A DNA stretch of 64,000 bases from an uncultured Acidobacteriota bacterium (GTDB lineage: Bacteria; Acidobacteriota; UBA6911; RPQK01): NCBI GenBank assembly GCA_963744645.1, contig CAVUUN010000014.1, positions 450,110 through 514,109 on the forward strand, read 5' to 3'. Positions within the stretch are counted from its first letter, which is position 1; every line of letters begins with the position of its first letter. The notes beneath the pieces were generated by a model. That model did not search any database. It was not told the origin of the DNA and saw only the letters and a program-made list of their open reading frames with translations. Of this stretch, positions 5,133 to 64,000 are shown one piece after another. Made by a program: the position numbers and the translations under genes.

Positions 5133-6596
5133 ATGACCAAGCAGCGTTCACCCGTTAAGAAACCCTGGGGAGGCAGATTCAAAGATGCCCTTGATCCCCT
5201 GGTGCGCCAATACACCGCGTCTCTGCATCTGGACCGTCAGCTGGCGACCTATGACCTGCGCGGCAGCCGGGCGCACGTTTCCATGCTCGCCAAGCAAGGC
5301 ATAATCTCGGAGAAAGAGGCGGACCGCATCCTGACTGGCCTCAATGTCATCGAGAAAGAAATCGCAAAAGGGGAGTTCCCGTACCGCGAGGATCTCGAAG
5401 ACATCCACATGAACATCGAGACCCGCCTCCAGGAGCTGGTAGGAGAGGCGGGTAAGAAGATCCACACCGGCCGGAGCCGCAATGATCAGGTTGCCCTTGA
5501 TCTGAAGCTGTTCTGCCTGGACGTGGCACGCGACTGGCAGGGGAACCTCCTCGAGCTCCAAACCAGCCTGCGCGACAGGGCCAGGCAGGCCGGGTCCCAG
5601 CTGTTTCCCGGATGGACGCACCTTCAGGCCGCTCAACCTCTTGGCTGGGCGCACTACCTGATGGCGTTCATGGAGATGTTTTGCCGGGATTACCGTCGTC
5701 TGGACTCCTACGCCGAGTTGCACTCAGTCTGCCCGCTGGGGGCCGGCGCGCTATCGGGCAGCACGCTTCCTCTGGATCCCGAAGAGAGCGCCCGCCAGTT
5801 GCACTTCAAGACCTGCTTCGGGAACAGCTACGACGTCGTCGGTGATCGCGATTTCATCCTCGAGCTTCTCCAGATCGCCAGTCAGTCGATGATTCATGCC
5901 AGCCGGCTCGCCGAAGACTTCATTTACATGTCGAGCACGCCGGTCGGCTGGATCGAGTTGCCTGATTCCCTGTGCACGGGAAGCAGCATGATGCCGCAGA
6001 AGAAGAACCCGGATGTGCTCGAGCTGACCCGGGGGAAGACGGCGCTGGTCCTTGGTCACGCGTCCGGGCTTGCGACCCTGTTGAAGGGTCTCCCGTCCTC
6101 ATATAACCGGGATCTGCAACAGGACAAGGAGCACCTGTTCCACGCGGTGGCGACGACGACCGAAACCCTTGGCATTCTCCCTCTGGTAATCGCCGGATTT
6201 CAGATCCGAAGCGACAAGACGGCGTCGGGACTCAAGCAGGGGTTCCTGATGGCCACGGACCTGGCCGAGTACCTTGTCCGGCGCGGCGTGGCTTTTCGCT
6301 CCGCTCACGAAAAAGTAGGGAAACTGGTGGGTCAGTGCCTGGCTGAGGGCATCGGCCTCGAAGACCTTTCTACAGCGAGGATTAAAGAACTGATTCCGGA
6401 GTGTGACGAAGACGTCTCCGAAGTGCTTTCACCAGAGGGGACGCTTAGTCGCCGAACGCATAAAGGCAGCGCCGGTCTCCAGTCGATCAACGACCAACTG
6501 GCTTTCTGGGACCGGTGGATCGACTCCGAAACGCATCGTTTCACGGAGCCCAGTCGCAGCGGAGTCTCAGGGGAGTTTCGGGGAGAGAATATTTAA
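5133..6596 (+). CDS. argH: argininosuccinate lyase
   Basis: WGGRF N-terminus and fumarate-lyase family signature. The C-terminal 11 codons and the stop lie inside the degenerate MITE copy at 6579-6665. Confidence 0.9.
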   Translation: MTKQRSPVKKPWGGRFKDALDPLVRQYTASLHLDRQLATYDLRGSRAHVSMLAKQGIISEKEADRILTGLNVIEKEIAKGEFPYREDLEDIHMNIETRLQELVGEAGKKIHTGRSRNDQVALDLKLFCLDVARDWQGNLLELQTSLRDRARQAGSQLFPGWTHLQAAQPLGWAHYLMAFMEMFCRDYRRLDSYAELHSVCPLGAGALSGSTLPLDPEESARQLHFKTCFGNSYDVVGDRDFILELLQIASQSMIHASRLAEDFIYMSSTPVGWIELPDSLCTGSSMMPQKKNPDVLELTRGKTALVLGHASGLATLLKGLPSSYNRDLQQDKEHLFHAVATTTETLGILPLVIAGFQIRSDKTASGLKQGFLMATDLAEYLVRRGVAFRSAHEKVGKLVGQCLAEGIGLEDLSTARIKELIPECDEDVSEVLSPEGTLSRRTHKGSAGLQSINDQLAFWDRWIDSETHRFTEPSRSGVSGEFRGENI

Positions 6597-7754: not shown

Positions 7755-10186
<2,432 letters not shown>

Positions 10187-11045: not shown

Positions 11046-11200
11046 GCTGCGCACTGCGCACTGCGGACTGCGCGACTGCGAACTGCGAACTGCGAACTGC
11101 GCACTGCGAACTGCGAACTGCGCACTGCGCACTGCGGACTGCGTGCACTGCGGACTGCGCCTGAGAACTACCAACTGCGCACTGCCGGCTGCCGGCTGCC
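11046..11200. repeat. heptamer tandem array CGNACTG x~16 plus GCCGGCT repeats
   Basis: cgcactg cgcactg cggactg cgcgactg cgaactg ... read directly. The ORFs 10549..11238(-) and 10842..11207(-) are artefacts of this array. Confidence 0.9.
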
Positions 11201-12573: not shown

Positions 12574-14097
12574 TTGCATTCGCCTCCGCTGTCAACCGAT
12601 TATAATTCGCCGATGATCTCAAGCCGTATGCGGTTTCGAACGGGACAAAAGGCCGGCCTCATCCTCGCCATTGTCCTATGGTCCGCTTCCCTGGCGGCCC
12701 AGCCGGCCAATCTTCGGGGCCGACTCGATGCGCTGCTTGGCGACCCCGCCCTTGGTGCTTCAGTCTGGGGCGCCAAAGTCGTCTCGCTTCCCGGCGGAGA
12801 GATCCTGTACGAGAGAAATGCCCGGTTGCTTCTTGTCCCCGCGTCCAACCTGAAGCTTGTAACCGCCATCGCCGCTATCCGGAGACTGGGTCTCGATTAT
12901 CGATTCACGACGCGGATCGAGACCGATGGCGAGATCAGGGGCGGCGTCCTGCAGGGAAACCTCATCATCAGGGGATCCGGGGACCCCACGCTCGGAGCGC
13001 GGCCTTCGAGTCCGGATCTCGAACACATGGAAGCGGGGAATCCCTGGGAGGCTTTTGACTCCTGGGCGCAGCAACTGAAGGCGCTCGGCATTCATACAAT
13101 CCGGGGCGACCTCGTTGGCGACGACAGCCTACTGGCTCCTGCCGAGCCGAGCCCCGGCTGGGCCTGGGACGATCTGGCCTGGGGATACGCCTCCCCTGCC
13201 GGCGGGCTCCTCTTCAACGAAAACCTGGTTCTTCTTCATGTTGTGACAGGAGAACCGGGATCCGTTCCCCGGTTGGAGATCGTCCCTGATCTTCCCTTTC
13301 TCCAGGTCGTCTCAAACGTCAAGACTGCCCGCGACGGAGAATTGCCTGAAATCCAACTGACACGCGAGGTCGGGGAGAACGTCACGACGGTTAACGGGTC
13401 TGTCCGTCCTTACGCGGACCAGTGGAGGTCGGTGAGTGCCGGCGACCCGACGAGGTACTTCATGTCGGCGCTGCGTCGGGCGATAAACCGGGCGGGAATT
13501 GAGTTGGAGGGGACGGCCCGATTCGCAGGGGACAGAGAACAGGCACCGGCGCGGCTCTTGTTCAGGCACGATTCTCGGGACCTTCGCTACGTCCTTCGTG
13601 TCCTGCTTAAGACAAGTCACAACCTGTACGCCGAGGTACTCGCAAGGATCATCTCGCCGGATCCCAGACGCAAGAGCCTCGAGTCGGGAATCGGGCAGAT
13701 CGAAGAAATGCTGACGGAAGCGGGGCTTGAGGATGATGCTTACTTCATCGTCGATGGATCCGGCCTGTCTCGCTATAACCTCCTGTCCGCGGATGCACTC
13801 ACCGGTCTATTGCGCTACGCGGTCGAGAAGGGCTACGGCCGGGATCTTCGGGACTGCCTGCCGGTCGCGGGAGTGGACGGGAGTCTGAAAGAGCGGCTGC
13901 AGGGCACCGCAGCGGCGGGGAGGGTCTTCGCAAAGACCGGGAGCCTCAAGCACGTGAGAGCCTTGTCCGGCTATGTCGAGGCAAAGGACGGCCGGCTCGT
14001 CGCCTTCTCGATCATCGCCAACAACGTCAGGGCAGACAAACTCAAAGCCGAAACCGTGCAAGATCGTTTCGTGGAGATTCTGAGTTCTGAGTTCTAA
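12574..14097 (+). CDS. dacB: D-alanyl-D-alanine carboxypeptidase/endopeptidase (PBP4, peptidase S13)
   Basis: SxxK (ASNLK), SxN (SHN) and KTG (KTGSL) motifs with a signal peptide. The last 6 codons lie in the heptamer array. Confidence 0.8.
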   Translation: MHSPPLSTDYNSPMISSRMRFRTGQKAGLILAIVLWSASLAAQPANLRGRLDALLGDPALGASVWGAKVVSLPGGEILYERNARLLLVPASNLKLVTAIAAIRRLGLDYRFTTRIETDGEIRGGVLQGNLIIRGSGDPTLGARPSSPDLEHMEAGNPWEAFDSWAQQLKALGIHTIRGDLVGDDSLLAPAEPSPGWAWDDLAWGYASPAGGLLFNENLVLLHVVTGEPGSVPRLEIVPDLPFLQVVSNVKTARDGELPEIQLTREVGENVTTVNGSVRPYADQWRSVSAGDPTRYFMSALRRAINRAGIELEGTARFAGDREQAPARLLFRHDSRDLRYVLRVLLKTSHNLYAEVLARIISPDPRRKSLESGIGQIEEMLTEAGLEDDAYFIVDGSGLSRYNLLSADALTGLLRYAVEKGYGRDLRDCLPVAGVDGSLKERLQGTAAAGRVFAKTGSLKHVRALSGYVEAKDGRLVAFSIIANNVRADKLKAETVQDRFVEILSSEF

Positions 14098-14187
14098 GTT
14101 CTAAGTTCTGAGTTCTGAGTTATCAAACGGGGGCCACCGAACGGTCAACCCCGAACTCCGAACTCCGAACTCAGAACTCAGAACTCC
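14078..14187. terminator. inverted heptamer arrays (TCTGAGT x6 / CMGAACT x5) forming a long hairpin that fills the convergent dacB-rarA gap
   Basis: ttctgagttctgagttctaagttctaagttctgagttctgagtt ... ccgaactccgaactccgaactcagaactcagaactcc. The arms are reverse complements and the element abuts both stop codons. Confidence 0.6.
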
Positions 14188-17213: not shown

Positions 17214-17264
17214 TGCAGTCATCTGGCGCGTTTCTTGGAGGCCAACCGGTTCGCGGGACTCCCG

Positions 17265-17299
17265 TCAGTTGTCAGTTGTCAGTCGTCAGTCGTCAGCGC
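17265..17299. repeat. heptamer tandem array GTCAGTY x5 overlapping the 3' end of the XdhC-like gene
   Basis: gtcagtt gtcagtt gtcagtc gtcagtc gtcagcg read directly. Confidence 0.8.
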
Positions 17300-22177: not shown

Positions 22178-24674
22178 TCAGAATAGCCTCTTCTGCAATT
22201 CCTCCATGACGTCCGCGGAGCTTCGGGCGCGACTCTTGCCGGAGAGGTCCATGTCCTTGCGCTCGAGCTTGACCAGAATCTCACGGGCACGCTCGAGAAC
22301 CGGGGATGGCATCCCGGCGAGCCGAGCCACTTCGATCCCGTAACTCTTGTTTGCAACCCCGGGAAGCACTTTGTGGAAGAAGATGATCTGGCGGCCGGAT
22401 TCCCTGATCGTCACGCAGTAGTTCTTGACACAGGAATACAGGCGGTCGAGCTTGGTCAATTCCTGGTAATGAGTCGCAAAGAGCGTCCGCGCCTTCCTCT
22501 GCGTTTCGGTGACCAGGAACTCGGCCACCGACCAGGCCAGCGACAGGCCGTCAAAAGTAGCGGTGCCCCGGCCCACTTCATCGAGCAGGATCAGGCTTCG
22601 ACTGGTGGCCGTGTTGAGGATATTCGCGGTTTCAATCATCTCGACCATGAAGGTGGAACGTCCGCGGGCGAGATTATCGCTCGCGCCCACCCGCGTGTAA
22701 ACCCTGTCAACCAGCCCGATGCGCGCCTCGTCGGCCGGCACGAGAGACCCCATCTGCGCCATGATGACGATCAAGGCGTTCTGGCGCAGGTACGTACTTT
22801 TGCCCCCCATGTTCGGGCCGGTCAGGATCAGCATCTGGTCCGTGGAGGTGTTGCAGAACAGGTCGTTCGGGACAAACGGCTCACCCCCCTGCAGTTCCAC
22901 GACCGGGTGGCGCCCGCCGCGAATCTGGATCTCCTCGCTCGAATCGAGGATCGGCCGGGCATAGCGGTTCCGGCGGCCCACTTCCGCGAGCGCCAGGAGG
23001 ACGTCCACCCGGGCGAGGAAGTGCGCGACTGACTGGATGCGTGCCGCCTGGCCGCCGACCTCCCGCCGAATCTTCAGGAAGAGATCCTTTTCGATCTCCA
23101 GGATCCGTTCCTCGGCGTTCAGCACCTGGTCCTCGTACTCCTTGAGCTCCGGAGTGATGAAACGCTCGGCGCCCACCAGCGTCTGCTTCCGGATGTAATC
23201 CTCCGGCACGGCGTGCAAATGCGACTTCGTCACCTCAATGAAATAGCCGAAAACCTTGTTGTACCGGACCTTGAGGGAAGGTATCCCGGTTCGCTGCCGC
23301 TCCTTGCTCTCGAGCGAGGCAATAAATGACTTGCCCGATCCGGAGATCTTGCGGAGCCGGTCCAACTCCTCGTCGTATCCCGCGCCGGATCATCCCCCCG
23401 TCATTGAGTGTCACCGGGGCATCTTCGTCGATCGATTGCTGCAGCAGACTGACAACGTCGGTCAACAGGTCCAGGGGCGTGGACAGCAGGCTGCTTTTGC
23501 AGTCGGCCAGGTGCGTCTGCAGCTCGGGCAGGGAGGCCAGCGAGTCGCGCAGGGCCAGCAGGTCGCGTGCATTGGCCGTTTCGAGGACCACCCGGCTCAG
23601 CAGTCTCTCCACGTCATGGATCGCTTTGAGGACTTTGCCAATTCGGTCCATTCGCACCAGCGAGCCCTTCAGCTCTTCAATGGAATCCAGCCGCTCGTTG
23701 ATCACCCGCACGTCCAGACTCGGTCGCAAAAGCCAGCTGCGCAGAAGCCGGGCACCCATGCCCGTCTTCGTCGAGTCGAGGACGGACAGCAGCGTCCACT
23801 GTCGGGAACCGTCGTTTGTCTTCAGGAGCTCCAGGTTGCGGACGGTCGCCTCATCGAGCTTCATGTAGTTGGACAACTCGAACAGCCTGACGGTCAGCAC
23901 GTGGCCCAGCTGCGAGCGCTGGGTCTGCTTGACGTAGTTCATGAGGGCGCCGGCCGCGCCGATGCCTGCCTGCTGCCCGTCCAGCCCGAATCCTTCCAGC
24001 GTGGAGACCTTGAAGTGGTCCAGGAGCAACCGCTGCGAGTAGTCGAGATTGAAGCTCCAATCCGGCTGGCCGGTCAGGACCGTGTTGGCGCGGAGGTCGG
24101 CCGGGTACCAGCCTTCAAAAGCCGTGCGATCACCGTCTGCCACGACGAGCTCGCGGGGATTGAAATGTGAAAGGACCTGGAGCATCTGCTCGCGGGCCTG
24201 GTCCCCAGCGAGCTCCGTGATCCAGAATTCTCCGGTCGAAACGTCCAGGAAGGAGGCGCCAACACGCTCGCTGCTCTCCAGAATGGCGCCGATGAAGTTG
24301 TTTTCCCGGGATTCGAGGAGGGCGTCTTCGACTGCCGTTCCCGGCGTCACGATCCGGGTGATCTCGCGGCGAACCAGTCCTTTCGCCTGTTTCGGGTCCT
24401 CCACCTGTTCGCAGATGGCGACCCGGTGTCCCTTCTTGATCAGTTTGCTCAGGTAGCCGTTGACGGCGTGGTAGGGCACCCCGCACATGGGGATCGGTTT
24501 ACCGCTTCGGTCCGCGTGCCGGGAGGTGAGGGTGATCTCAAGCTCCCGACTACCCGTCACGGCATCCTCGAAGAACATCTCGTAGAAGTCGCCCAGTCGG
24601 AACAACAGCAGGACATCCGGATTCTCGCGTTTGATCTCATGGTACTGCCGCATCATCGGCGTCAGGTTGTCCAT
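22178..24674 (-). pseudogene. mutS: DNA mismatch repair protein MutS, split by a +1 frameshift into an N-terminal part (23235-24674) and a C-terminal part (22178-23365)
   Basis: The N-terminal ORF carries mismatch-binding and connector domains. The C-terminal ORF carries the clamp and ATPase (GPNMGGKST). The frames diverge after DGGMIR, where GYDEELDRL continues in the +1 frame, next to a GGG run at ~23378-23380 (coding strand). Confidence 0.85.
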
Positions 24675-24811: not shown

Positions 24812-24955
24812 CCATAGACCGGAGGGCGACGAGGAGGCGGGGAGAAGGAGTCCGACGATGTTCCGGATTCCGGGTGACGCTCCTTTTTGATTTCGCTTGC
24901 CGGGGAGCTCCGACATGCGGATGTTGGACAGGGGGAAAGCGGCGCCGCCGAGTCG

Positions 24956-25190
24956 TGTCAGAGCCGCGCGAGCGCTTTCCAGCGAAGCAAGCGGTTTCGA
25001 GTCCGGTCAGAGCCGCGCGCGAGCGCTCTTCCAGCGAAGCAAGCGGGTTCGAACAGAAAGCTGAACGCGCGAAAAATCGGACGAAGAAGCGTACCGGCGA
25101 TTAATGGAAGGTTGAGCTCGGGGCAGGCGATCTGCTTTCTGTACCGACCCGCTTGCTTCGCTGGAAAGCGCTCGCGCGCGGCTCTGACAG
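24956..25190. repeat. complex repeat: 36-bp unit (CAGAGCCGCGCGAGCGCTTTCCAGCGAAGCAAGCGG) twice direct and once inverted
   Basis: Copies at 24956-24994, 25009-25047 and inverted at 25148-25190, read directly. Track ORFs here are spurious. Confidence 0.75.
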
Positions 25191-25219
25191 CGACTCGCCC
25201 GCCCCCCGCTTCGGTCAAG

Positions 25220-26530
25220 TCACTTCAAATCGGGAGTGGGAGACCGTCCCAGCGGCAGGCTGGCCGAGACGACGCCCCGGATGGTGCGGACGATGGTCCC
25301 CACCAGCGTCTGGTCGCTGACAATTTCCACGGTCCCTTCGGCGCTTTTACCCGAGAACTCTGACACGAGCTCGTCGATAAAAGAGGCCCTCTGCTCCCCC
25401 GGGGCCAGGACCACCTCCACCGTATGCTTCTTGAACAGGGGGAGGTAGAACGTGATGGAGACTTTCGCCTCATGATCAGAGACATTGGCCAGCGCCAGCG
25501 CGGTGTTGGTCTCCTCGGCCAGGTTTTTTTGAAAGATTCCGAAGAAGCGGTAGCCGGGTATCGCGCCCTGGATGCCCGTCTCCGAGACCGGTTTGCCCTC
25601 GGAGTCAAGGATGCGGTAGACGGCGGCGAGCTCCACCGGATAGTTCGAGGCGACACAGGCGTAGCCGCGGTCCAATTCAGAGACCGAGCCCGTGGTGCGG
25701 ACAATCTTCGACTGGACGTCTTCAAGCACGGAGTCGAAATGAGCGCCCTGTTGTCCGTCGAGGATGACGGGCAAGGGCGCGCCGGACGGGTCCCGAAACT
25801 CGAGCGAGAGCATGGCCACAGCATGGAGCGGCCACGAGTATCGGTTGGGTATGGCCGAACTGGTCATGCTCAGTTGGGTCTGAAGTGTCCTTTCTCCTTC
25901 GGCAAGCCGGCCGTGCGCGGCTTGGGCCACACATCGGCGAAAAGCAGGTGGATTAGTGAAACTGGCGTGGATCAGGAAGAGTGCCTCCGGCTCGTGAGCG
26001 TCTGAATACTCCACCTCAACACGGCTGATTGCGCGGCCTTCAAGGTCTTGCAGCAGAACCGGATTGAGTAGCGTATACCCCGGCAACAGACTAGTCGCCT
26101 CCTCTCCCAGCAGAACTCCATCCGAATTGAACAATCTTTCGGTAGCGGTGACTGCTGTGCTTGCAGCCAAGTGGAGTGAAAGTTGCCGGACGGGCTGGCT
26201 GAAATGAATGACGAGCGGTCCCGCGTCTTCCCCGTCCGGCGCGTCATTGAGAATGGCTGGAGCGTCTGTTTGGGGGCCCTCAGGCCAAACAAACACACTT
26301 CGGCTCCCGCTGATCGGTGTTTGCTCGGAGCGGTTGTCCAGCGTAATGCCCCAGTCGCCGAAGACCTGGCTGACATCTGAACCGGCAGGAAGCGGCGGGG
26401 GTACGAGCATCACCGCCTGCTCTGCAGACGGGTCGTGTTGTGAGAAGACTGCGGAGGCCGCAATTGTACCCGCTGCGGCCAGCAGGAAGCAGATCACAAA
26501 CCTCATCGCGGGTGTTGTCACTTTGCGCAT
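25220..26530 (-). CDS. hypothetical exported protein (signal peptide), no recognisable domain
   Basis: 436-aa ORF with an N-terminal hydrophobic signal (MRFVICFLLAAAGTIAASA). No family recognised by eye. Confidence 0.5.
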   Translation of the reverse strand: MRKVTTPAMRFVICFLLAAAGTIAASAVFSQHDPSAEQAVMLVPPPLPAGSDVSQVFGDWGITLDNRSEQTPISGSRSVFVWPEGPQTDAPAILNDAPDGEDAGPLVIHFSQPVRQLSLHLAASTAVTATERLFNSDGVLLGEEATSLLPGYTLLNPVLLQDLEGRAISRVEVEYSDAHEPEALFLIHASFTNPPAFRRCVAQAAHGRLAEGERTLQTQLSMTSSAIPNRYSWPLHAVAMLSLEFRDPSGAPLPVILDGQQGAHFDSVLEDVQSKIVRTTGSVSELDRGYACVASNYPVELAAVYRILDSEGKPVSETGIQGAIPGYRFFGIFQKNLAEETNTALALANVSDHEAKVSITFYLPLFKKHTVEVVLAPGEQRASFIDELVSEFSGKSAEGTVEIVSDQTLVGTIVRTIRGVVSASLPLGRSPTPDLK

Positions 26531-26960
26531 TCATCCTCCTGTCAAAGAGTGGTGCACCCTTGTCCCGCCTTTTGAAAAAGGGCAGTAAAGGTTGGGAAAA
26601 CCAGCCGGCTTACCTGACTGTCAACCGAAGTCATCGAAGACGTGAGTACTCGAACTTTCTGCCCCTCAGGATTGTAGCCGCATTGGCTCGATACGGTTCG
26701 TTCTCGTTACCAGTTGGCTGCGCTCTCAAAGTACACAGAAAAGCTTAGTTCTGCATAATGTTTTTGGTTATTCCAAAAAATCACCGGCAAACGCGGAAGG
26801 GATACGAACGAGCTCATGCATTTGCAGAGAGAACCGAAATAGCGGCGAATAATGGGAACAGTGTGGAATAGTGACGACAGTGATCTTGGCGGCGCCATTA
26901 GCGTTCGCGAGATCGGGCCTTGGTGGTGCATCGCGGTGCAGAATGGTGTAAGATGAGGGC

Positions 26961-36565: not shown

Positions 36566-36665
36566 TTAGTCTCCCCGTTTTGGTCTCCCCGTCTCCTAGT
36601 CTCGTCTCCTTGTCTCCTGTCTCTGTCTCCCCCTCCTCCTTCTCCCCGTCTCCCCGTCTCTCCCT
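36566..36665. repeat. pyrimidine-rich heptamer array (GTCTCCY-type), inverse of 24784-24811
   Basis: tagtctccccgttttggtctccccgtctcctagtctcgtctccttgtctcctgtctctgtctccccctcctccttctccccgtctccccgtctc read directly. Confidence 0.75.
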
Positions 36666-46593: not shown

Positions 46594-48119
<1,526 letters not shown>

Positions 48120-48345
48120 CGGGAAACCGAAAGAAAACAACGTTCGATAACAATCGGGTCTTGCAGGCTCGCCTCTGTCTGGTTATCCAAGGTCGGATAA
48201 AAAACACCCGGCGCCTTTTTTTTCGAAGAAGAAGGGCGCCGGGTTCGATCTTGACTGGTCTTTGACAATCTGGAAGAGAGAAAACAAAAGGGCAAGAGAA
48301 ATGCCACAAGGCAGGCCTGGGGATTTTGGGCGACTGAAAAACCCG

Positions 48346-51308
<2,963 letters not shown>

Positions 51309-51385
51309 GGATTTTTCAGTGGCTCAAAAACCAAGGCCACCTGTGGCACGCCTTTAGCCCCGAGTTTCTTCTTCCAGATGTTACG

Positions 51386-51464
51386 ATTGCGGATTGCGGA
51401 TTTGGGAGTGCGGATTAAAAAGCCGGTCTTTCAATCCGCAATCCCAAATCCGCAATCCGCAATC
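51386..51464. repeat. inverted repeat of GCGGATT heptamers in the 23S-5S spacer
   Basis: gattgcggattgcggatttgggagtgcggatt ... aatccgcaatcccaaatccgcaatccgcaatc, ~31-bp arms. Confidence 0.8.
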
Positions 51465-51473
51465 TTAAAGGAT

Positions 51474-51590
51474 TTCCGGCGGTCCTGGCGGAGGGGCCAC
51501 ACCCGTTCCCTTTCCGAACACGGAAGTTAAGCCCTCCAGCGCCGATGATACTGCATGGGAAGCCATGTGGGAACGTAGGTCACCGCCGGA
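51474..51590 (+). rRNA. rrf: 5S ribosomal RNA
   Basis: CCGGCGGTCCTGGCGGAGGGGCCACACCCGTTCCC...GGGAACGTAGGTCACCGCCGG is a typical 5S sequence. Confidence 0.9.
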
Positions 51591-51601
51591 ATATAAACGA
51601 A

Positions 51602-52943: not shown

Positions 52944-55900
52944 ATGACGAAACGCGGGTGGCGACTGGCAGGAGTGGCAGTGGCGCTTCTCCTGCTGCTT
53001 CCAGTCCTGGCCTTTTTTCTATTACATACGGCACCCGCGAGGCGTTATCTGCTCCAGAAGGCGCAAGCGTATCTTCTGGACCAGGGTGTTCGCCTGGAGG
53101 CAGCAGGGATTGATTACAGCCTGGCCGGGGGCACCCTCCGCCTGGACACCGTCCGTCTTGCGTCTGTAACCGGGCAGGACCTCCCTCCGTTCCTCGAAGC
53201 CCGCAGCGCGACCTTTGACATCGGTATCAGCAGTTACCTGAAGGGATTTCTACACCTTCAGGACGCCCGGTTTGAAGACCTGAAGCTCCGCATTGTTATC
53301 GACGAACACGGGCGCAGCAATCTGCCTGCCTTCACCCGCAGCGAGGCGAAACCGGAGGAAAGAGCTCCGCAATTCCTCATCGAGCACCTGGAAGCATCAC
53401 CTCTCTACGTTCTATACGACGATCGGCCCAACCAGCTCCGCGTCGAATTGCCCGTGGCCCGGCTCCGAGTCGACGGACGAATGCCTTTCAATCATCGCGT
53501 CCTCTTCGGTGCGGAACGGCCTGTTTCCGTTCGGTACGAGGGCACGAGCATGATGCTCGATGTCCTGAACCTGACGGCCGACCTGCCTGGCGACCTGAGC
53601 GGCCTGGGGCTGCGCGAGCTTCAGTTGCGCAGCGGAGGGTCGCAGGTCAGGGTCACCGGCCGGCTCGAGCAGTGGAATGACCCACGGATGAATTTTGAGG
53701 CGCGAGCCAGCCTCGCCCTCGAAGAGCTGGCTCGGGCGGTGAATTTGAACGAGCCGTGCGCGGCACTGCCGTGATTACGGCAACACTGAGCGGGACCGTC
53801 GAGGACCTGATCGTACAGGGCGATATTGCCGGGCACGGGCTTCGCTACCGCCAGTTCACGGATTTGTCGTTTGAGACTGCTGTTGACTGGCAGCGACAGC
53901 GCGAGTCGGTCCGCCTGGACTCCATCAAACTCGATTCTCCGGACTTTTCCGCCCGTGGTTCCAGTCTGCTGGTTCTGTCTGGTGAATCAGGCAGCTCGGC
54001 GACGCTCGATATAGTCAAGGCGGACCTGGCGGCGCTTTCCCGCAGGCTGGACTTGCCGATTGTCGTCGAGAGCCGGGCATCCGGCCAAATGGCCGCCACA
54101 TGGCCGGGGCTCCAGTTCGGTCTGGCTAGTGGACAGGCGGATTTCCGGCTTTCGCAGGGCCGGGAACGCGCAGAGAGGGACCGGCTTCCGGTCGCAGGTT
54201 CCCTTCAACTCCGGCTCCAGGACTCGAAGGTCACCGCCTCGATTCACCACATTCAGATTCCCGGGCTGGTCCTCGACGGGAACGCCAATGTCGATTCCTT
54301 TGAGGATTTGACGCGGTTGGCCGACGGCCGTCTGTCCGGGCAGGTTCGGGCGGAAATCACCGGCCTGGAAACCCTCTATCCGAATCTGCTGAGCTTCCTC
54401 GGGAACGATGCCGACCCGACTCTCAACCGTATCCGACCAGCCGGAACAGGCCGCCTTTCCGCGATACTCACCGGGTCGCCGTCCACGCCCGTCATTTCCG
54501 CCTCCCTGGAAGTTCCGTCCGCAACGGTAGGGAATCTGCACGGAATCCAACTGGCTGCGGAGGCTCACATTACTCCGGCGCAGCTCGACGTGCCGTCGCT
54601 TTCGCTCCAGTGGAACGGGCAGTCAGTTCAAGCAGACGGAACGATTGGTCCTTTCCGGCCGGGAGTCGTCGCTCGATATGCGGGTGAAGGCCAAAAACCT
54701 TGATATCCAGAAGGCTCTCGGGGCACTCGGTCAGCCTGTTCCGGTTTCGGGTGAGGCCACACTGGAGGCGCAAGCGACCGGCACGATTGGCGCTCCGCAC
54801 GTCCGTGCTCAGCTCCAAATGTCTTCGCTCGAGGCTTACGACGAGCCGTTCGGGGCCCTGAAGGCAGATCTGTCTCTCGATGGCCGCGACGGCACGGATC
54901 GATAGACTGGTCCTCGACAAGTCATCCGGGCAACCGGGGTCTTCCGGCAGCTTGGAGCTGGCCGGCTCGTACAACCTGGATTCCAGTTCCTATGAAATTA
55001 CGGCGACAGGTGATCGACTTCGGATCGAGGGGCTGACTCTTCCCGGGCAATCTCCCCTGGCGGGTGTCCTCGAGTTCCAGGCCAACGGGAGCGGGACTCT
55101 CTCGAACCCGGTGCTCGACTTTAACCTAGCCGCTGAGGAAGTGAGTTTCGAGGGCCAGCAGCTCAAAGCCGCACAAGCAGACGGCCAGCTGAGAGACCGG
55201 ATTGTGCGCTTCAACCTGGCTGCTCCGTCCTTCAGCCTCCGTGCGAACGGGCTAGTAGGAATAGACCGACCGTATGCGGCTGAGATTGAAGCGAATATCG
55301 CCGAACTGGACCTTGCTGCCCTGCCTCCCTCGCTCGCTCGGAGTTCCCATCCAGGGACAATTGAGTGCACGAGGGAAGGCGACGGGAGAACTGGCCATGC
55401 CAAGACAGGCCGAGGTTCAAGCGACGGTAACCGATCTCCTCCTGAAGAGCGGCGGAAGGGTGATAGAGAACGAGGGTCCGGTTGAGGTTGCGTATTCAGG
55501 TGAGAGGTTGCAGATTCGGACTGCCGCCCTGACCTCGGGTTCTTCGTTCTTGACGCTCTCCGGGCAGATGCCGCGTGGGACCGCAAGCCGCGCCGGGTTT
55601 GGTGGAGGTCCACGGCAGTGTCGACCTCGCTGAGCTGCTGGCTGGGAGTCTGACCGCCCCGTACTCGGCCGGCGGCAAATTCACGCTCGATGGTTCGGTG
55701 GCCGGCTCCTTCGAGAACCTGGTTCCAACGCTCGCCGTTTCACTGAGAACGGTCGCTTCGCAGCGCCGGAGCTCGTCGAGCCTGTTCAGGACGTCAGCTT
55801 GCAGGCGACGGTGCGAGACGGTCGAATCGATCTGACTCGACTCGCAGGACGTCTGGGGCCGGGAACCCTGGAGGGTCAGGGCGAAGTTCCACTGGGGATT

Positions 55901-57560
55901 ATTCCGGGTATCCCGGAGCAGATTCAGCGAAGAGAAGGACCTGCCCGGCTGACGTTGCGGGCCGCGGATTTTTCGGTTCGGTCGCTTGCCGCTGCTCCTC
56001 AGGACGTTTCGGGAACCCTTTCCCTTCGAGCCGACCTGGAAGCGGCCGATTCACGCCCCGAGTCCTTAACTGGCGCCGTGACCTTTGACCGGCTGGATTT
56101 CCGCGTCGCCGGTGTAGACCTGCGCCAGGACCGGCCGGCCACCCTGCGAGTTGGGGGAGGGAAGCTCCGAGTTGAGCACTTTGCGTTACTCGGCCCGGAA
56201 ACCCGCATCCAGGCGGCCGGAACGGCAGGCTTCACGGGCGACAGCGAGTTGTCCCTGCGGATGAACGGCAGGATGGATCTCGCCCTTCTTGCCGTATTCG
56301 CACAGGATCTGGAGGCCTCCGGTGAAGCGCAGTTCCGGGTGGAAGCATCCGGTACAGCCACCAATCCTCGGCTCGCCGGCTTTGTTGAGTTGCAGGGAGG
56401 TCAGGTTGCGCTTGAGAGTCCGGCGATCCAGCTGAACGATCTCCGGGCGCGGCTGGATCTGGAAGGGGATGGCCTGGTCATTCGCGAGCTCAACGCGAAC
56501 ATGAATGGTGGGTCGCTCACGGCGTCCGGGTCGGCGATCGTGGAGAACGGTGTCGTCAAACCGAGTCTCGACCTCGTCGGCCGCGGCGTATTCCTTGACT
56601 TCCCGGAAGGGCTCCAAACGGTTTCCGACGCGGATGTCAACGTGCGTTCCGCGGGCGACTTCGTCACTGTCGGAGGTCGCGTCCAGATTCTGCAGGGCTC
56701 CTATACCGACCAGCTCAATCTCGAGGAGAGTCTCCTGGGACTGGTCGGATCGGACGACGTGGAAACCGTGTCGGAGCGGGATCCGCTGCTCGCCAGGGTT
56801 CGTTTTAACGTCGAGGTGCAGAGCCGGGAACCGATAGTGATGGACAACAACCTGGCGAAGGTAGGGGCGGACCTCGACATGCGCCTGGTCGGGAATTACT
56901 ACCAGCCAGGCTTACTGGGGCGGTTGAGGTTGGATGAGGGAGGCGAGCTGTACCTGCGGGAGCGGACCTACTACGTGGAACGCGGTGTCATCTCGTTCAA
57001 CAATCCGGCCGAGATTGAGCCGAGCTTGGACCTGAGCGCCCGGACCCAGGTTAAAGACCTCGACATCACGCTTCGGATCAGCGGGACTGCCCCTAACGTG
57101 GAGACGAGTCTGACGTCCGACCCGCCTATGCCCGAAACGGATCTCGCCTCTCTGCTGGTGACAGGCCGGACGCTCGAGAAAGCGCGTGGCGAAGCGGGAA
57201 CCGTTCTCCGTGAGCAGACTCTTTCGCTTCTGACAGGCACCGTCGGTGGGAGGGTGGAAGAAGAACTGAAGCACATCACGGGGCTCTCAGAGGTGCGAAT
57301 CGAACCGAACCTCATCGCGCCCGAATCCGATCCGACAGCTCGGCTCACGATTGGTCAGGACCTGACCGCCAAGCTGGGGCTGATCTACTCGATGAATCTG
57401 GCGGACAGCGGCGACCGGATCTACATCGGTGAGTACGACGTGACCAGGCGGTTCATCGGAAGGGTCGTCCATGAGACGGATTCCCAAGACTCGCTGGAGG
57501 AAGGCTCCAAGTCCCGCTTCGAGGTCCGGCACGACCTTCGACTGGGAGGGAGCGGAGACG
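52944..57560 (+). pseudogene. tamB: TamB/AsmA-family (DUF490) translocation-and-assembly-module protein, fragmented by at least 6 frameshifts
   Basis: Consecutive overlapping ORFs 52944-53774, 53756-54703, 54645-54905, 54880-55485, 55274-55633, 55575-55835 and 55799-57560 each read as TamB-like beta-rich sequence. An N-terminal signal anchor and the C-terminal DUF490 region (...YLRERTYYVERGVISFNNP...) are present. Confidence 0.7.
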
Positions 57561-57569
57561 CTGGCGAAC

Positions 57570-59805
57570 GGGCGGCGCCGCGTCCCGAAGAACGGAGACG
57601 CATCACGGCGCTTCGTTTTGAGGGACAGTCTCCATTTACCGAGAAGCAGCTGACGGACGAATTTGACCTCGATGTCGGCGACAAGTATGAATTCTTCAAA
57701 GTGCGTCAAGGCTTGGAAGCGCTCAAATCGTTCCTCGTGGAGCGCGACTACCTGGAAGCAACGGTCAGGCTGAATCGTGAAAACACCAGCCCCGAATCGG
57801 TCGCCCTCACCGTTCGGGTCGATTCCGGTCCGATGGTTCGTTTCCGTTACGAGGGTTTTCAAACCGGGAGGAGAGATCGAGAGCCGTGTGCGGGAATCCT
57901 GGACGAAAGGGGTGTTCGACGAGCTCCGGCTGGAGATGGCCGGCGAAGTCGTTCGCTCCGCCTTGTTGCTCCAGGGTTACATGGAGGCCAAGATCGAGCA
58001 GGAGACCCGGCTCGAACAGAATGAGAAGGAGGTCGTATTTCGAGCAGAATTGGGCCCCCGGTATGAGGACGTCACGGTCGAGTTCGAAGGTGCATCCCCA
58101 CTGCTTAAGGAACGCCTGGAAGAGGAATTGGGCAGGGATAAGCTCGCCGCCCGGGTTCACACGTCGCTGCAGCAAGTCGACGATCAGATCAAGAGGCTGT
58201 ACAGGAGCGAGGGTTACCTTCAGGCGGAGGTCGGCGCCCCGGTTCCGAGACTTGACCCGTCCACGCGCACAGCCGTCCTGGTGTTGCCAATCAAGGAAGG
58301 GCCTCGGGCCGAACTGACGCAGATCGAGTTTGATGGGAATTCGGTCCACGGCGACGAAGATCTGGCCCGCCATTCGCAGCTCACTGTCGGCCAGGTCTTT
58401 CGTCCGGCGGATCGCGATGCGGCGGTTGTGCGTCTGCGCCTCCTCTATGCCGCAGAAGGGTACAACGATACGGTTATCACGCCGGAGACGCAGTCAGATC
58501 CGGAAACCGGGAAGGTGCGCCTTGCTTTCAGGATCGAGGAGAATCGGAGAGAAGTGGTTCGGGCCATTGAGGTGAAAGGGCAACGGGAGAACGAGCGAAC
58601 GTTTTGTCACGAGCCTGCTGGACCTGGCGGTCGGGGACCCTTTCACCCCGGAGAAGGCAGGCCGTTCTCGCCGCGCGCTGTACAACACGGGCGCCTTTTC
58701 TCTTGCGGATCTGGAAACCGAGGAGATCGGGCCGGCGGGCGCGTCGCCGGGCGAAAAACCTCTGCGCGTGACAGTGCGGGTGCGGGAGGTCAGGCCGTTT
58801 CGGCTGCAGTACGGCGGCTTCTACGACACTGAACGCGGGCTGGGCGCGATTGCTGATCTGACGAACCGGAACACGCTCGGGAACGCGGCCGTCCTGGGGT
58901 TGAGGGCACGCTATGACGACACATTCCGGGAAGGTCGCCTGTACTTTGGACAGCCACAACTTGGCGGGCTGCCGTTCAACAGCAATGCCGTCGCCTTCGT
59001 GAGCCGCGAAATCCGAGTGAATGCCGGTTTCGTAAACGACCGGGTGGGGTTCTCGGTCCAACAGGAGAAGACTCTCAGAAACCAGTTCGTCCTGGCTTGG
59101 GGATACCGGTTCGAGCGTGATCACACGTACGAGCCTGTTCCAGACCCGTTCTTTGATATCACCTTGAAGGTCGCTCCTTTGACAGCGACCTTCAGTCGCG
59201 ACGTCAGGGATGATATTCTCGATGCCTCCCGGGGTTCCTTCACCTCGCACAACCTCGAGTTCGCGCCGAAGTTGCTCGGCTCGGATCTCCGCTTTATCCG
59301 CTACTTTGGTCAGTACTTCCGCTATATTCCGTTAGAGCGAACCGGAAGAGATCCCGTGGAGCGGCGGTTTGCGCAAAAGCCGGTTGGTGTATGCGGGAGG
59401 AGTCCGACTCGGTCTGGCACATGGTTTTGACGACCAGAGGCTGGTGCCAAGCGAGAGGTTCTACGCGGGTGGGGGCACCTCGATCCGGGGATTCGAACAG
59501 GACGAGGTCGGGCCGCGAAATATCATCGGTGATCCAGGCGGGGGGGCCAGTCGTTGTTCATCATGAACCACGAATTGCGGTTTCCTCTTTATCAGATCTT
59601 TGACGGTGTCGGTTTCTTTGACCTGGGCAACGTCTACCGAGGATGCCGGGACTTGGACTTGTTTGATGTCCGCTCTTCGGCCGGTTTCGGTTTGAGCATA
59701 CGGACGCCGTATTTTGTTCTGCGCGGGGATGTGGGCTTCAACCTGTTCCCGAGGGAAGGGGAAAAGCGGAGCGTGTTCTTCTTTAGCATCGGGCAGGCTT
59801 TCTAG
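57570..59805 (+). pseudogene. tamA: Omp85-family outer-membrane protein (TamA/BamA-like: POTRA domains plus 16-strand barrel), fragmented by at least 3 frameshifts
   Basis: POTRA-like repeats in ORFs 55799-58024 (tail) and 57777-58832. Barrel segments in 58768-59430 and 59554-59805, with the canonical C-terminal ...FFFSIGQAF. No intact start or signal peptide was found. Confidence 0.7.
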
Positions 59806-59848
59806 GAATGCGGAATGGCGAATGCGGAATGCGGAATGCGAAAGCGGA
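59805..59848. repeat. heptamer tandem array GGAATGC x~6 directly after the tamA-like stop
   Basis: ggaatgc ggaatgg cgaatgc ggaatgc ggaatgc gaaagc read directly. Same unit family as 1230-1270. Confidence 0.8.
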
Positions 59849-59867
59849 AAGGAGGGGGTCGTCGAGC

Positions 59868-59994
59868 CGAACCGCAAACGGAGCGTTTTGTGCGAAGTGC
59901 GCGGATTGTATCCGGAAGCAACCAACTCCGAGCGTGGTGTCGCTCACTGATACAATCCGCGCACTTCGCACAAAACGCTGCGTTTGCGGTTCTG
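59868..59994. repeat. ~125-bp inverted repeat (REP-like), family B copy 2
   Basis: GAACCGCAAACGGAGCGTTTTGTGCGAAGTGCGCGGATTGTATC ... GATACAATCCGCGCACTTCGCACAAAACGCTGCGTTTGCGGTTC. Shares cores with 1302-1422. Confidence 0.8.
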
Positions 59995-60128
59995 TACCGC
60001 TCAGCCAGCGGCTGCATAGTGCTCCGGAGGTCGATCAGGATGTCCGACTTGGAAGTCGGACCTACGCTGTCACGCTCTGCAATTCGATTGCCTTACGCAA
60101 ACCGGTCCTGCGAGGTTATCCTTAGCGG

Positions 60129-61134
60129 GTGGCACGGGTGACACTCGGAGCAGGCAGGCAGGAAGCCAAGAAGCAGGCGGCGCAGAAGTACCCGATCTCG
60201 GTCATCATCCCGGCTCACAATGCCGCCGCCCATCTTGGCCGGTGTCTGGAAGCCGTTCGGGCCAACGATTTGACCTGCGTGGAGATCATCGTCGTGGACG
60301 ACGCTTCGTCGGATTCCACCCCGTCATTGCACAGGGATCGGGTTGTCGGCTCATCAGGCTCGATCAGCAGGTGGGCCCCGCCGGGGCGCGAAATCAAGGC
60401 GCCCGGCGAGGCGCGCCATCCGTATCTCCTGTTTCTTGACTCCGACGTGATCCTGCCGCCCGGCAGCATTGCCTTCATCCGAGAGACTCTCGAACTCTAC
60501 AGTCACAGGCCGGACGTCTCGGGGGTCCTTGGCCAGTATTCAGAGGGCGGTGCCGTCCGGAGGTTTCCTTACCAATTTCAAGAACCTGACGACCTGTTAC
60601 CTCTACAACATCACCGACACTCAAAGCCCCTATCTGCACACACCGATATTCTGTATCCGTAAAGAGGTGCTGGAATCTGCGGGTGGTTTCGATCCCAGGC
60701 TCTGGAGGGCGGAGGACTTCCGGCTTGGCGTGGTCTTAGGCTCGAGAGGCTACCGGTTCATTATCGACAGGCGGATCAAAGGGCTCCACTTGAAGGAGTA
60801 TGGTTTTGCAGGCGCCTTGAAGGAGGACTGGCTCCGGATCAAGGACCTCCAGTCGGTGAGGCTGGGACCGGGCGAGCGGGCCTTTGCTCTGCGGGCCCAT
60901 CGCTGGACCCGGTTGGTATCGCTGTCGCTTCCCGGCGCGACCTGTTGGCCTTGGCCCTCGCCCTTGCCGGACCTCGGACGGCGTTTGTTTTCCTGGCCGT
61001 TCTACTCTCAGCCCTCTTCCTGGCGCTCAATGCGCGTTTCCTGCTTTATTGCAGGCGGCAGAGAGGGCTCCTTTTCGCAATCCAGTCGGCTGCTTTTCTT
61101 TTTCTTGAAATGCTGTGGGCCGAAGTTGCCCTGA
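60129..61134 (+). pseudogene. GT2-family glycosyltransferase, fragmented by at least 2 frameshifts
   Basis: ISVIIPAHNAA...VDDASSD in ORF 60129-60662. IRLDQQVGPAGARNQGARRA in alternate-frame ORF 60242-60439. The C-terminal half lies in 60469-61134. Confidence 0.6.
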
Positions 61135-61159
61135 TGGCGGGATGCTGCGTCGACGGCGA

Positions 61160-62243
61160 TCAGAAAAACGAATTCCGGAAAATCCGAAGCGCCCGGGACG
61201 GGTTGAACAGGGTGTTGACGCTCATCGCGCATTCATAGGTGCACTGGCAGCCGAGTTTCTGTTGATATTGAACAGCCGAGGCCGCCTCACTGGATGACCA
61301 GAGCGCCGCAAGGTCGCAGCCGTAGTCCCGAACATTCCCCATTTTGCGGTCCAGGGTCTCGCACAGATAGACGTCGCCCGTTTCGCTTAGAACTCCGATC
61401 AACTGGCCGGCGTAGCAGGGCGAGATTCTCCGGTCGGCGCCGGCCGCTTCTTCGATCAGCCGGTAGGTCTGCTGCCTCCTTGGCCACAACGAGCCGGTCG
61501 CTCCATCGCCGGGTGCGCAGGTGGTCCTTGCGATAGATCACCACTTTTCGGGCGAATTCCCGATAGACCTGCATGTCGACATTCTTGAGCGTGGGATCAA
61601 GCGGGTTCCCGCGGACCAGGGTAATGGTGACTGCGTCGGGCTGCAGTTCCTCTTCGACGTAGCGATAGAATTCGCTCAACTGATCCTGGTTCGCGGCCGA
61701 GACGGTCAGGGCGACGCCTACCGAGAGGTTCGGGAACCGGGGCTTAAGCTTCTTGAGCCCATCGAGAGCTTCGATCGCGTGCGAAAAGCTGCGCGGGTTC
61801 TGCCGGATGGCGTTGTGAATCTCGGGTGGACCGTCCAGCGAGACGCCCGTTGCCACTCGTGCAGTTTTGACCCTTTTCAGCACCGCCTCGGCGCCGGACA
61901 CTGTCTTCTCGATGCTGAATCCGTTCGATGGGATCTGAATGTTCCGGACTCCGGAGTTCCTTTCGAACAGATGTGCAATTTCAGCGAGATCAGGCCGCAG
62001 ATAAGGCTCTCCGCCGGTCAGCGAGACGGACAGGAGATTCGGGAGGCTGCGGGTGACGCGGTCGATTTCGTCCGGCGTCAGCTCGTTTTTCTTCTTGTTG
62101 AGCTGCTCCCAATAGAAGCAGTGCGTACACAGGAGGTTGCAGCGGCCGGTGACAAAGAAGATCAGGCTTACCGGGAGGCCTCTTTTGTGGACCAGCCGGC
62201 CGGCAATCTGAAGATCCCTGAGCCCGGAAGACATCCGGACCAT
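61160..62243 (-). pseudogene. radical SAM/SPASM-domain protein (peptide- or cofactor-maturase-like), split by a frameshift
   Basis: CNLLCTHC cluster and SLTGGEPYLRPD in ORF 61287-62243. A Cys-rich SPASM/twitch-like C-terminus (CYAGQLIGVLSETGDVYLCE...GCQCTYEC) sits in alternate-frame ORF 61160-61489. Confidence 0.65.
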
Positions 62244-62446
62244 GGTACCACGCCGGTTCTGCTGCGTCGTGCACGGCGCCCGAACACGCCATCTGACACC
62301 GTCGTTCCTGTCTTGCGGCGATTCGGCGGTGTCAACATGACCACTCTTGCAGGGCGGCTGACACCACCAAAAGCTCCAAACTTGGCCCTGGTTGAAACTT
62401 TTCGCAGGCGGACTCCGTTCTAATTAGCGAAGAAGGAGGACAACCG

Positions 62447-63014
62447 ATGAAGGTGCAACGGATTCTGTCCATGCTGGTGTTACTCGCTGCTTTCGGACTT
62501 CAGGCTCAGGCGCAGGCTCAGAGCGGCTTCAAAGCAGTGGTTGCATGTGCGGGTCGACAGTGCGAAGAAGGGAGGCGAAAACGTCAAGGTGAACGTTCCG
62601 CTTTCCCTGGCGGAAACGGTTCTCGGGATGGTGAAGGAGAAGAACGTTTCATCGGGAAAGATCAAGATCGAAGACAAGAACTTCACGGCTCAGGATCTGC
62701 GGAAGATCTGGAACGCCGTCAAGGCTGAAGGGAATGCGGAGTTCGTTACAGTCCAGACCCAGGAGGTCAATCTCCGAGTCGCGCTCGAGGGCGCGTACCT
62801 GGTGGTGAGAACCGACGAAACGTCCCCGAGCCAGGTGCAGATTACCCTGCCGACGAAGGTCGTGGATGCGTTGCTTTCAGGCAATGAGAACGAATTGGAC
62901 CTTCTGGCCGCCATCCGGGCGCTTCAGGAGACCGATAGCAAGGAAATCGTCTCCATCAAGGACAAAGAGACGTCGGTCAAAGTCTGGATCGACGACAGGA
63001 ATATCTCCGAGTAG
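62447..63014 (+). CDS. hypothetical secreted protein (frame switches between the signal peptide and the mature part)
   Basis: Signal peptide MKVQRILSMLVLLAAFGLQAQA in frame 1 (62447-). A lower-GC, Lys/Glu-rich body in frame 2 (62541-63014). Divergent from the radical SAM/SPASM gene. Confidence 0.4.
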
Positions 63015-63089
63015 TGCGAAAGGCGCGGGCTTGCAGAGGGGCACATCAAAAACGCGGGGAAGCGAGTTCTTCGTGAGGGGGACAGGGAC

Positions 63090-63716
63090 ATGTTAGCCAA
63101 GATTGGAATGGTCATCCTGGTGATTTTCGTACAGTTCGTGTTCCTGATCGGTCTGGTGCTCTACCAAACGGGAATCATTATTGTTGACGTGCAGGAAAAG
63201 GGCCCATCCGGGTACCACCTGTACATTCCCGTCCCCGTTGCCCTGTTGCACGCCGGGCTGCTGATCGTCCCCAAGGAGGAGTTGCGCGAGGTCAGGCAGG
63301 AGATCGGCCAACGCAAAGCCCTGATCATGGGTGTCTGCGAGCAGATCAATCAATGCCCCGACGGGTCGTACCTGGAGTACCGGAGTCAGCATGAGCAGGT
63401 GACGGTTAAGAAAGAGGACGGCGATCTGGTCGTCTTCGTGGATTCCGGTCAGGAGAAGGTCCGCGTCGAAGTGCCCGGTCTTTGCGGTTCGCAACCTCAT
63501 GGCCCAGGTCACTGCCTCTGCACTGTAAGGGCAGCGCTTTTCAGCGGAGTAAGCGGGTTCACGTGGTACGCAGGCGGCCATCATCAGGTCTTGATGCCGG
63601 ACAGCATTAGCAACCCTGCCGCCGAAAAGAGGATGTTTGGCCCCCAGGCCGCAAGGATGGGGGCCAGAAGCCCGCTGGCTCCCATCACCCCGAAAACCCC
63701 AAACGCTCCCCAGTAG
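63090..63716 (+). CDS. hypothetical membrane-anchored protein
   Basis: N-terminal TM helix (MVILVIFVQFVFLIGLVLY). The low-complexity tail overlaps the downstream minus-strand gene, so the true end is uncertain. Confidence 0.35.
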   Translation: MLAKIGMVILVIFVQFVFLIGLVLYQTGIIIVDVQEKGPSGYHLYIPVPVALLHAGLLIVPKEELREVRQEIGQRKALIMGVCEQINQCPDGSYLEYRSQHEQVTVKKEDGDLVVFVDSGQEKVRVEVPGLCGSQPHGPGHCLCTVRAALFSGVSGFTWYAGGHHQVLMPDSISNPAAEKRMFGPQAARMGARSPLAPITPKTPNAPQ

Positions 63717-64000
63717 AGAATTCCGAGCAGGACTCCGGCCGCTACGCCGTACAGGCCGCCCCGGCGTCCCATCGAGAATGCAAAGGGAATTCCAAGGACC
63801 GTCATGATGAGGTTGACCACGGGAAACGAGAACTTCTTGTAGAGCTCGGTCCGGAGTTGGTCCACTTCGAAGCCTGCCTTCTGCAGGTCCGCAATATATT
63901 GCTTCAACTCCGCATAGGTCATCTTGCTCGACTGTTTGACCTCCTGCTCGAAATGCGAGGGCGGCTCGAATTTGACGCGACGCTCCGTGAAGCCCTCGTA
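63584..64000 (-). CDS. LptF/LptG (YjgP/YjgQ) family permease, C-terminal part; the gene continues beyond the window end
   Basis: The C-terminal TM segments ...YWGAFGVFGVMGASGLLAPILAAWGPNILF are typical of LptF/G. The reading frame stays open past 63922 to the window end. Confidence 0.6.
   Translation of the reverse strand, partial: YEGFTERRVKFEPPSHFEQEVKQSSKMTYAELKQYIADLQKAGFEVDQLRTELYKKFSFPVVNLIMTVLGIPFAFSMGRRGGLYGVAAGVLLGILYWGAFGVFGVMGASGLLAPILAAWGPNILFSAAGLLMLSGIKT

Follow-up and report, generated by a model that had tools for sequence, protein, structure and literature searches.

MutS1-type mismatch-repair ATPases, represented by those of E. coli and Thermus aquaticus, are proteins of ~830 aa that comprise domains I-V and carry the motifs GDFYEMF and GPNMGGKST. 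Mutators that result from mutS defects occur among natural isolates. In mutation-accumulation lines of mutS-knockout Vibrio, the substitutions are mainly transitions (PMC5854121). The 1-bp indels in lines of the same type fall mostly in homopolymers, at a rate that climbs with run length, and the authors regard the pattern as consistent with that of other mismatch-repair (MMR)-deficient bacteria (PMC5854121). In repair-deficient cancers, coding homopolymers of MSH6 and MSH3 can act as switches (PMC11250277). Long-read metagenome pipelines include polishing explicitly to cut indel errors (PMC12313526), and classical Nanopore errors cluster in homopolymers (PMC9262707).

The DNA discussed here, termed the window, is the whole 64-kb stretch that was analysed, in which mutS is interrupted by one extra base. 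We conclude, with a probability of about 0.9, that this frameshift stems from a one-base error in the consensus of the deposited assembly and not from a biological mutator switch. The structure of the locus, its comparison with a near-identical assembly, the indels elsewhere in the window and the competing readings are discussed in the following sections, and the coordinates of the features are summarized in Table 1.

Structure of the mutS locus

The locus is an ordinary and most probably functional mutS of an Acidobacteriota-like bacterium, and the named homologues of its product are Acidobacteriota MutS. The gene is read on the minus strand in one frame from 24674 to 23385 and in another from 23385 to 22178, the change of frame being situated at about 23385. 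The upstream frame opens with an ATG at 24674, is MutS-like to ...NDGGMIR, continues out of frame thereafter and reaches a stop at 23235. The downstream frame reads ...GYDEELDRLRKISGSGK... and stops at 22178; its MutS frame is open up to 23389. The two ORFs overlap by 131 nt. Once one base is removed, the gene encodes 831 aa, and its product shows the five MutS Pfam domains (I, II, III, IV, V) in order. The preliminary description of this DNA had reported a mutS divided between a 479-aa and a 395-aa ORF that becomes continuous when one base is removed, and both ORF reading and Pfam bear this out.

Pfam assigns MutS_I (5-117), MutS_II (126-258) and positions 1-154 of MutS_III to the upstream ORF, and MutS_IV, positions 154-194 of MutS_III and MutS_V to the downstream ORF. 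Within the intact protein, MutS_III (276-563) encloses MutS_IV (432-523). The break is located at residue 431/432, directly ahead of MutS_IV, and not after domain IV as had been stated. The mismatch-binding motif (Phe-X-Glu, GDFYEMF) is present in the translation of domain I, ...LGDFYEMFFEDA..., and the Walker A motif (GPNMGGKST) in that of domain V, ...TGPNMGGKSTYLRQ.... The 479-aa product (P0210) has an exact counterpart on a 1,751,643-bp contig represented in the public protein collection (NCBI+ENA); the frameshift thus belongs to the deposited record and is not peculiar to the window.

Table 1. Coordinates of the features discussed, in window positions unless a locus of contig_27112 is named.
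Feature	Position	Strand	Remarks
mutS, MutS1-type mismatch-repair ATPase	22178-24674	-	831 codons with one base removed
Upstream mutS ORF, 479 aa	23235-24674	-	domains I, II and first 154/194 positions of III; then ~47 out-of-frame residues
Downstream mutS ORF, 395 aa	22178-23365	-	TTG start; domain IV, remainder of III, ATPase domain V
Extra base	23385-23386	-	plus-strand CC versus C in relatives; alignments with contig_27112 and Logan SRR5468436_30713
GGG run named in the preliminary description	23379-23381	-	identical in window and contig_27112; not the differing site
argH in contig_27112	L085 15900-17365 = window 5133-6596		split into 149 + 59 + 277 aa
metK in contig_27112	L085 13577-14741 = window 7755-8918		split into 245 + 161 aa
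PMT_2 glycosyltransferase gene, neighbour of mutS	21692	-	split by 1-bp deletion; 507 aa in contig_27112
80-aa gene	27356	+	split by 1-bp insertion
369-aa hypothetical gene	34114	+	split by 1-bp deletion
nadE (glutamine-dependent NAD synthetase)	44720	+	split by 1-bp insertion
2009-aa TamB-POTRA-Omp85 gene	54647-59646	+	~eleven 1-bp indels; at least 4 called fragments
GT2 glycosyltransferase (356 aa) and radical-SAM (360 aa) genes	60321-61471		broken by ~ten small indels
Complete rRNA operon	46595-51591	+	16S 46595-48115, 23S 48346-51309, 5S 51475-51591
Heptamer arrays	1229-1269, 11047-11185, 14078-14121, 14147-14187, 17263-17296, 36583-36660, 51432-51464, 59805-59849		tandem arrays of 7-nt units

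Site of the extra base

Around the break the coding strand reads AAT GAC GGG GGG ATG ATC CGG CGC GGG ATA CGA. The TGA that the downstream frame meets in ATGATC confines the shift to C-CGG-CGC-GGG-A (plus 23379-23390). At this place the coding strand of the window has ATCCGGCGCGGG (ATCC-G-GCGCGGG), where the near-identical contig_27112 described below has ATCC-GCGCGGG, and L002 (Logan SRR5468436_30713), a relative with ~80% DNA identity, reads ATCC-GAACCGGG. As read from these alignments, the most parsimonious change is a single G to GG; the added base is then the second G in ATCCGG and precedes the GGG by five bases. Compared over window 23360-23400, the two alleles are ATCCGGCGC and ATCCGCGC, the CCGG and CCG forms, respectively.

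The preliminary description had proposed an extra base near a GGG at about 23378-23380. The presence of one extra base stands, but its placement in the G-run does not, as the differing base is the plus-strand C at 23385/23386. An indel inside the GGG run was considered and rejected, the run being the same in the window and in contig_27112. The GGG and the neighbouring GGGGGG (23395-23400) are both unchanged relative to contig_27112, and the nearest substitution is 147 bp away from the mutS indel. The restored peptide is ...DGGMIRAGYDEELD... (...MIRAGYDEELD...), identical to that of the intact homologue P0001, in place of the ...MIRGYDEELD... given before. The homologues listed are all in frame; the strict motif GG.I..G[YF] is fitted by 77 of the 120, and in each of these I and G[YF] are separated by two residues.

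Comparison with a near-identical assembly

The best homologue of the repaired protein is P0001, an intact 831-aa MutS with ~99.9% identity, encoded on ENA ERZ25039545 contig_27112 (753,843 bp). Both P0001 and the repaired protein have the five MutS domains in one contiguous chain, as judged by Pfam. The sequence of contig_27112 used for comparison comprises 68 kb in four overlapping loci (L001, L083, L084 and L085), and is collinear with window 1643-64000. Nucleotide identity amounts to 99.1-99.6% over most of the window, ~97% in short intergenic stretches at ~25.0-26.5 kb (96.8% over 24998-26549) and 95.0% over 59994-64000. Just upstream of mutS, at 24949-25052, lie 2.1 copies of a 52-nt unit, in an intergenic or small-ORF region (24.8-25.2 kb) whose divergence from contig_27112 far exceeds that of the flanking sequence.

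The mutS gene itself shares 99.3% nucleotide identity with that of contig_27112, and the extra C at plus 23385/6 is the sole indel. The 13 substitutions comprise 11 synonymous and 2 nonsynonymous changes, and the gene shows no further damage. A single unbroken MutS ORF of ~800-870 aa is absent from the window on account of one extra base, and the copy in contig_27112 is intact. The extra base is also absent from the relative with 80% DNA identity. The possibility that the error lies in contig_27112 instead of the window was rejected, because contig_27112 has an unbroken ORF and L002 shares its sequence state in lacking the base.

Further collections were searched for relatives. Neither allele of the mutS junction was found in JGI metagenome contigs (0 matches), and a scan of GTDB representative genomes revealed no close relative, the best being a 62% identical Acidobacteriota MAG. 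Look-ups of the exact products of the 157-aa ORF, MetK and the fragments P0121 and P0208 gave no match.

contig_27112 has frameshifts of its own, with extra bases at window-equivalent positions 5886, 6082 and 8166, and its argH and metK are split, while argH and metK of the window give full-length Pfam matches. That near-identical genomes carry different, non-overlapping frameshifts in housekeeping genes points to consensus errors in two independent assemblies. Reciprocal private frameshifts in genomes of ~99% identity hardly admit a biological explanation.

Other indels in the window

For the indel census, the window was aligned with contig_27112 over 51.2 kb, which gave 540 substitutions and 87 events of insertion or deletion. 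Copy-number changes of intergenic 7-nt tandem repeats and diverged spacers account for many of the latter. Thirty-one are isolated 1-bp indels in the window (16 insertions and 15 deletions). The reference run length at these sites is 0-2 nt in 28 cases, 3 nt in two and 9 nt in one. Among 130 homopolymers of at least 5 nt a single one differs from contig_27112 (T9 versus T8 at 48216, in the 16S-23S spacer of the rRNA operon). No tRNA gene was found in this 230-nt spacer or in the whole window.

The isolated 1-bp indels are located in genes in 20 of 31 cases (65%), compared with a coding fraction of 82%, so that frameshifts are barely depleted in coding sequence. They break 10 of the ~35 genes of the window, two small genes included. 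nadE is intact, with 586 aa, in contig_27112 and in one Logan and one JGI contig; a 367-aa NadE fragment and four TamB-Omp85 fragments are, like the 479-aa MutS fragment, part of the deposited record in NCBI+ENA. Some 12 of the 31 isolated indels have a substitution no more than 3 bp away, and the density of 1-bp indels is highest at 56-64 kb, where the strains diverge most. The mutS indel sits in the part of the window with the lowest indel density. The low-divergence part contains 5 coding indels in ~35 kb, and on a rough expectation of ~0.36 coding indels per 2.5-kb gene a hit in mutS would be unremarkable.

Several other features of the window were observed in the course of this comparison. 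Over 56000-64000 the divergence from contig_27112 rises from ~0.4-0.9% to 3.5-5%, and it is mostly synonymous, e.g. 120 synonymous to 51 nonsynonymous changes in 60-64 kb. This region looks like a recombination tract or a strain mosaic, and the concentration of 1-bp indels within it hints at mixed-strain consensus errors. Intergenic spacers, often just past gene ends, hold short tandem arrays of 7-nt units, in which the heptamer differs from site to site (CGGAATG, CTGCGCA (x19.6), TTCTGAG, AACTCCG, CGTCAGT, GTCTCCY, CAATCCG and GGAATGC). Several arrays have a different heptamer copy number in the window than in contig_27112. These arrays presumably resemble the heptamer STRR repeats of cyanobacteria.

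The TamB-Omp85 gene is of interest in its own right. One 2009-aa gene of contig_27112 (L084 10001-16030; window 53699-59829 on the plus strand) combines TamB, POTRA repeats and an Omp85 barrel, and in the window one frame spans the C-terminus of TamB into the POTRA domain. P0122, P0124, P0125 and P0140, which are Acidobacteriota-like proteins of 1108-1294 aa, also join PF04357, PF07244 and PF01103. The Acidobacteriota-like clade may thus have a genuine TamB-TamA/BamA-like fusion.

Selection and mutation spectrum

The substitutions that separate the broken genes from their counterparts in contig_27112 are mostly synonymous, with 111 synonymous and 36 nonsynonymous changes in the TamB-Omp85 gene, 51 and 11 in the radical-SAM gene, and 58 and 34 in the GT2 gene, besides the 11 and 2 in mutS. 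In the TamB-Omp85 gene, 108 of the 147 substitutions fall on the third codon position. Such synonymous, third-position substitutions in broken genes indicate that the frames have been under selection until now. A 3:1 synonymous excess in a gene with eleven frameshifts requires that the frameshifts are either extremely recent or not real.

The spectrum of changes was compared with that of genomes that lack mismatch repair, in which transitions are expected to dominate the substitutions and 1-bp indels to be in excess in homopolymers. Transitions and transversions relative to contig_27112 stand at 304:236, a weak test in which older divergence is mixed with any recent change, and no dominance of transitions is seen. 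Nor are homopolymers preferred, since 28 of the 31 isolated indels are situated at runs of 2 nt or shorter. The ratio of 304:236 together with indels that avoid homopolymers indicates that the scattered indels do not resemble the product of mismatch-repair loss.

The preliminary description had offered two relations between the mutS frameshift and the scattered indels. The first, that the loss of mutS explains the others, is not supported, given their avoidance of homopolymers, the lack of transition bias and the purifying selection in the broken genes. The second, that the mutS indel is possibly just one of the scattered indels, agrees with the frameshifts that the sister assembly has of its own and with the occurrence of 1-bp indels at random, non-homopolymer sites.

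Origin of the frameshift

A consensus error would be accompanied by many 1-bp indels against a near-identical genome without depletion in coding sequence, by a pattern of purifying selection in the original frame of the broken genes, and by different frameshifts in an independent assembly of the same species. Each of these was found, the independent assembly being contig_27112. The assembler or polisher would have written CCGG where the organism has CCG, and the mutS indel would belong to a class of random 1-bp consensus indels. The source is a 1.75-Mb metagenome contig and probably a long-read-only assembly, as judged solely from Flye-style contig_N names and contig sizes of 0.75-1.75 Mb. Errors of this class may arise where coverage is poor or where the reads come from a mixture of co-occurring strains; for the mutS indel, 147 bp from the nearest substitution, such an origin would be less certain. 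The proximity of ~12 of the 31 indels to substitutions and their peak at 56-64 kb suggest a mixed-strain or low-depth consensus artefact.

The foremost alternative is a genuine frameshift, with mutS lost in the sampled population or in its dominant clone, which would hence be a mutator; we consider this very unlikely. The extra base is there in the deposited sequence, where it truncates MutS ahead of the clamp and ATPase domains, a second mutS was sought within the 64-kb window and not found, and natural isolates that are mutators by virtue of mutS defects are known. Nevertheless, the base is missing in the sister with 99.3% identity and in the relative with 80% identity, and the differences in mutS, 11 synonymous to 2 nonsynonymous, come with no other damage. 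The indels of the window avoid homopolymers and its substitutions are without transition bias, which is at odds with the mutS-knockout lines (PMC5854121). Frameshifts in ~10 of 35 genes, nadE and Omp85 among them, would not be viable biologically, and the sister assembly has metK and argH frameshifts of its own. In its most specific form, a genuine extra G would mean an uncultured soil or sediment Acidobacteriota population dominated by a very recent mutS-null mutator clone, which we hold to be very unlikely. Such a clone would need to have arisen too recently for a homopolymer-indel or transition signature relative to the sister strain to accumulate.

The preliminary description had raised a reversible mutator switch in a short homopolymer; as a phase-variable device, slippage in a short G-run would toggle mismatch repair. 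The sequence around the site is G/C-rich, and coding homopolymers of mismatch-repair genes can switch, as in MSH6 and MSH3 (PMC11250277). However, the altered tract is G to GG in ATCC(G)GCGC, which is too short to slip, and the adjacent GGG and GGGGGG (23395-23400) are unchanged. The tract is not conserved, L002 having GAACCGGG, and the length variation is seen in one sequence only. This reading is most improbable and is not sustained.

Programmed +1 ribosomal frameshifting or a two-piece MutS, for which only the two ORFs overlapping by 131 nt could be cited, has next to no probability, as 120 of the 120 homologues listed are single polypeptides of about 809-871 aa, the extra base is absent in the nearest relatives and the +1 configuration is not conserved, no slippery or stall motif is conserved with any relative, and the downstream ORF would have to start with a TTG within domain IV. 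A slippage switch and programmed recoding are both effectively excluded, and a consensus error is retained as the explanation of the extra base.

Implications

A mutator genotype should not be read from a mutS frameshift in a metagenome-assembled genome that has not been corrected. Similar 1-bp indels split about one in four genes of the window, and the sister assembly is damaged elsewhere. Calls of pseudogenes, gene loss and 'mutator' status made from the deposited record would be inflated. Were the variant true, an uncultured lineage of Acidobacteriota would contain a natural mutator, which would be a modest finding with no new mechanism.

Comparison with known systems

The window mutS shares the domain organization, both motifs and the approximate length with the MutS1 proteins of E. 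coli and Thermus aquaticus, and no functional difference from them is discerned; the deposited ORF differs in being interrupted by one base. With mutS-defective mutators and with the MSH6 and MSH3 switches, the locus has in common a 1-bp frameshift in a mismatch-recognition gene that would abolish repair. It differs from them in lacking a slippage-prone tract at the site, a genome-wide mutation signature of repair loss, and conservation or recurrence of the variant.

The closest likeness in the pattern of indels is to long-read-only metagenome assemblies (Flye with one round of Medaka), with which the window shares isolated 1-bp indels, a distribution that is nearly blind to coding sequence, and adjacent split ORFs. 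Classical Nanopore error favours homopolymers (PMC9262707), whereas 28 of the 31 isolated indels of the window occur at runs of at most 2 nt. The indel pattern of the window therefore points to mixed-strain or low-coverage consensus errors over homopolymer miscalls.
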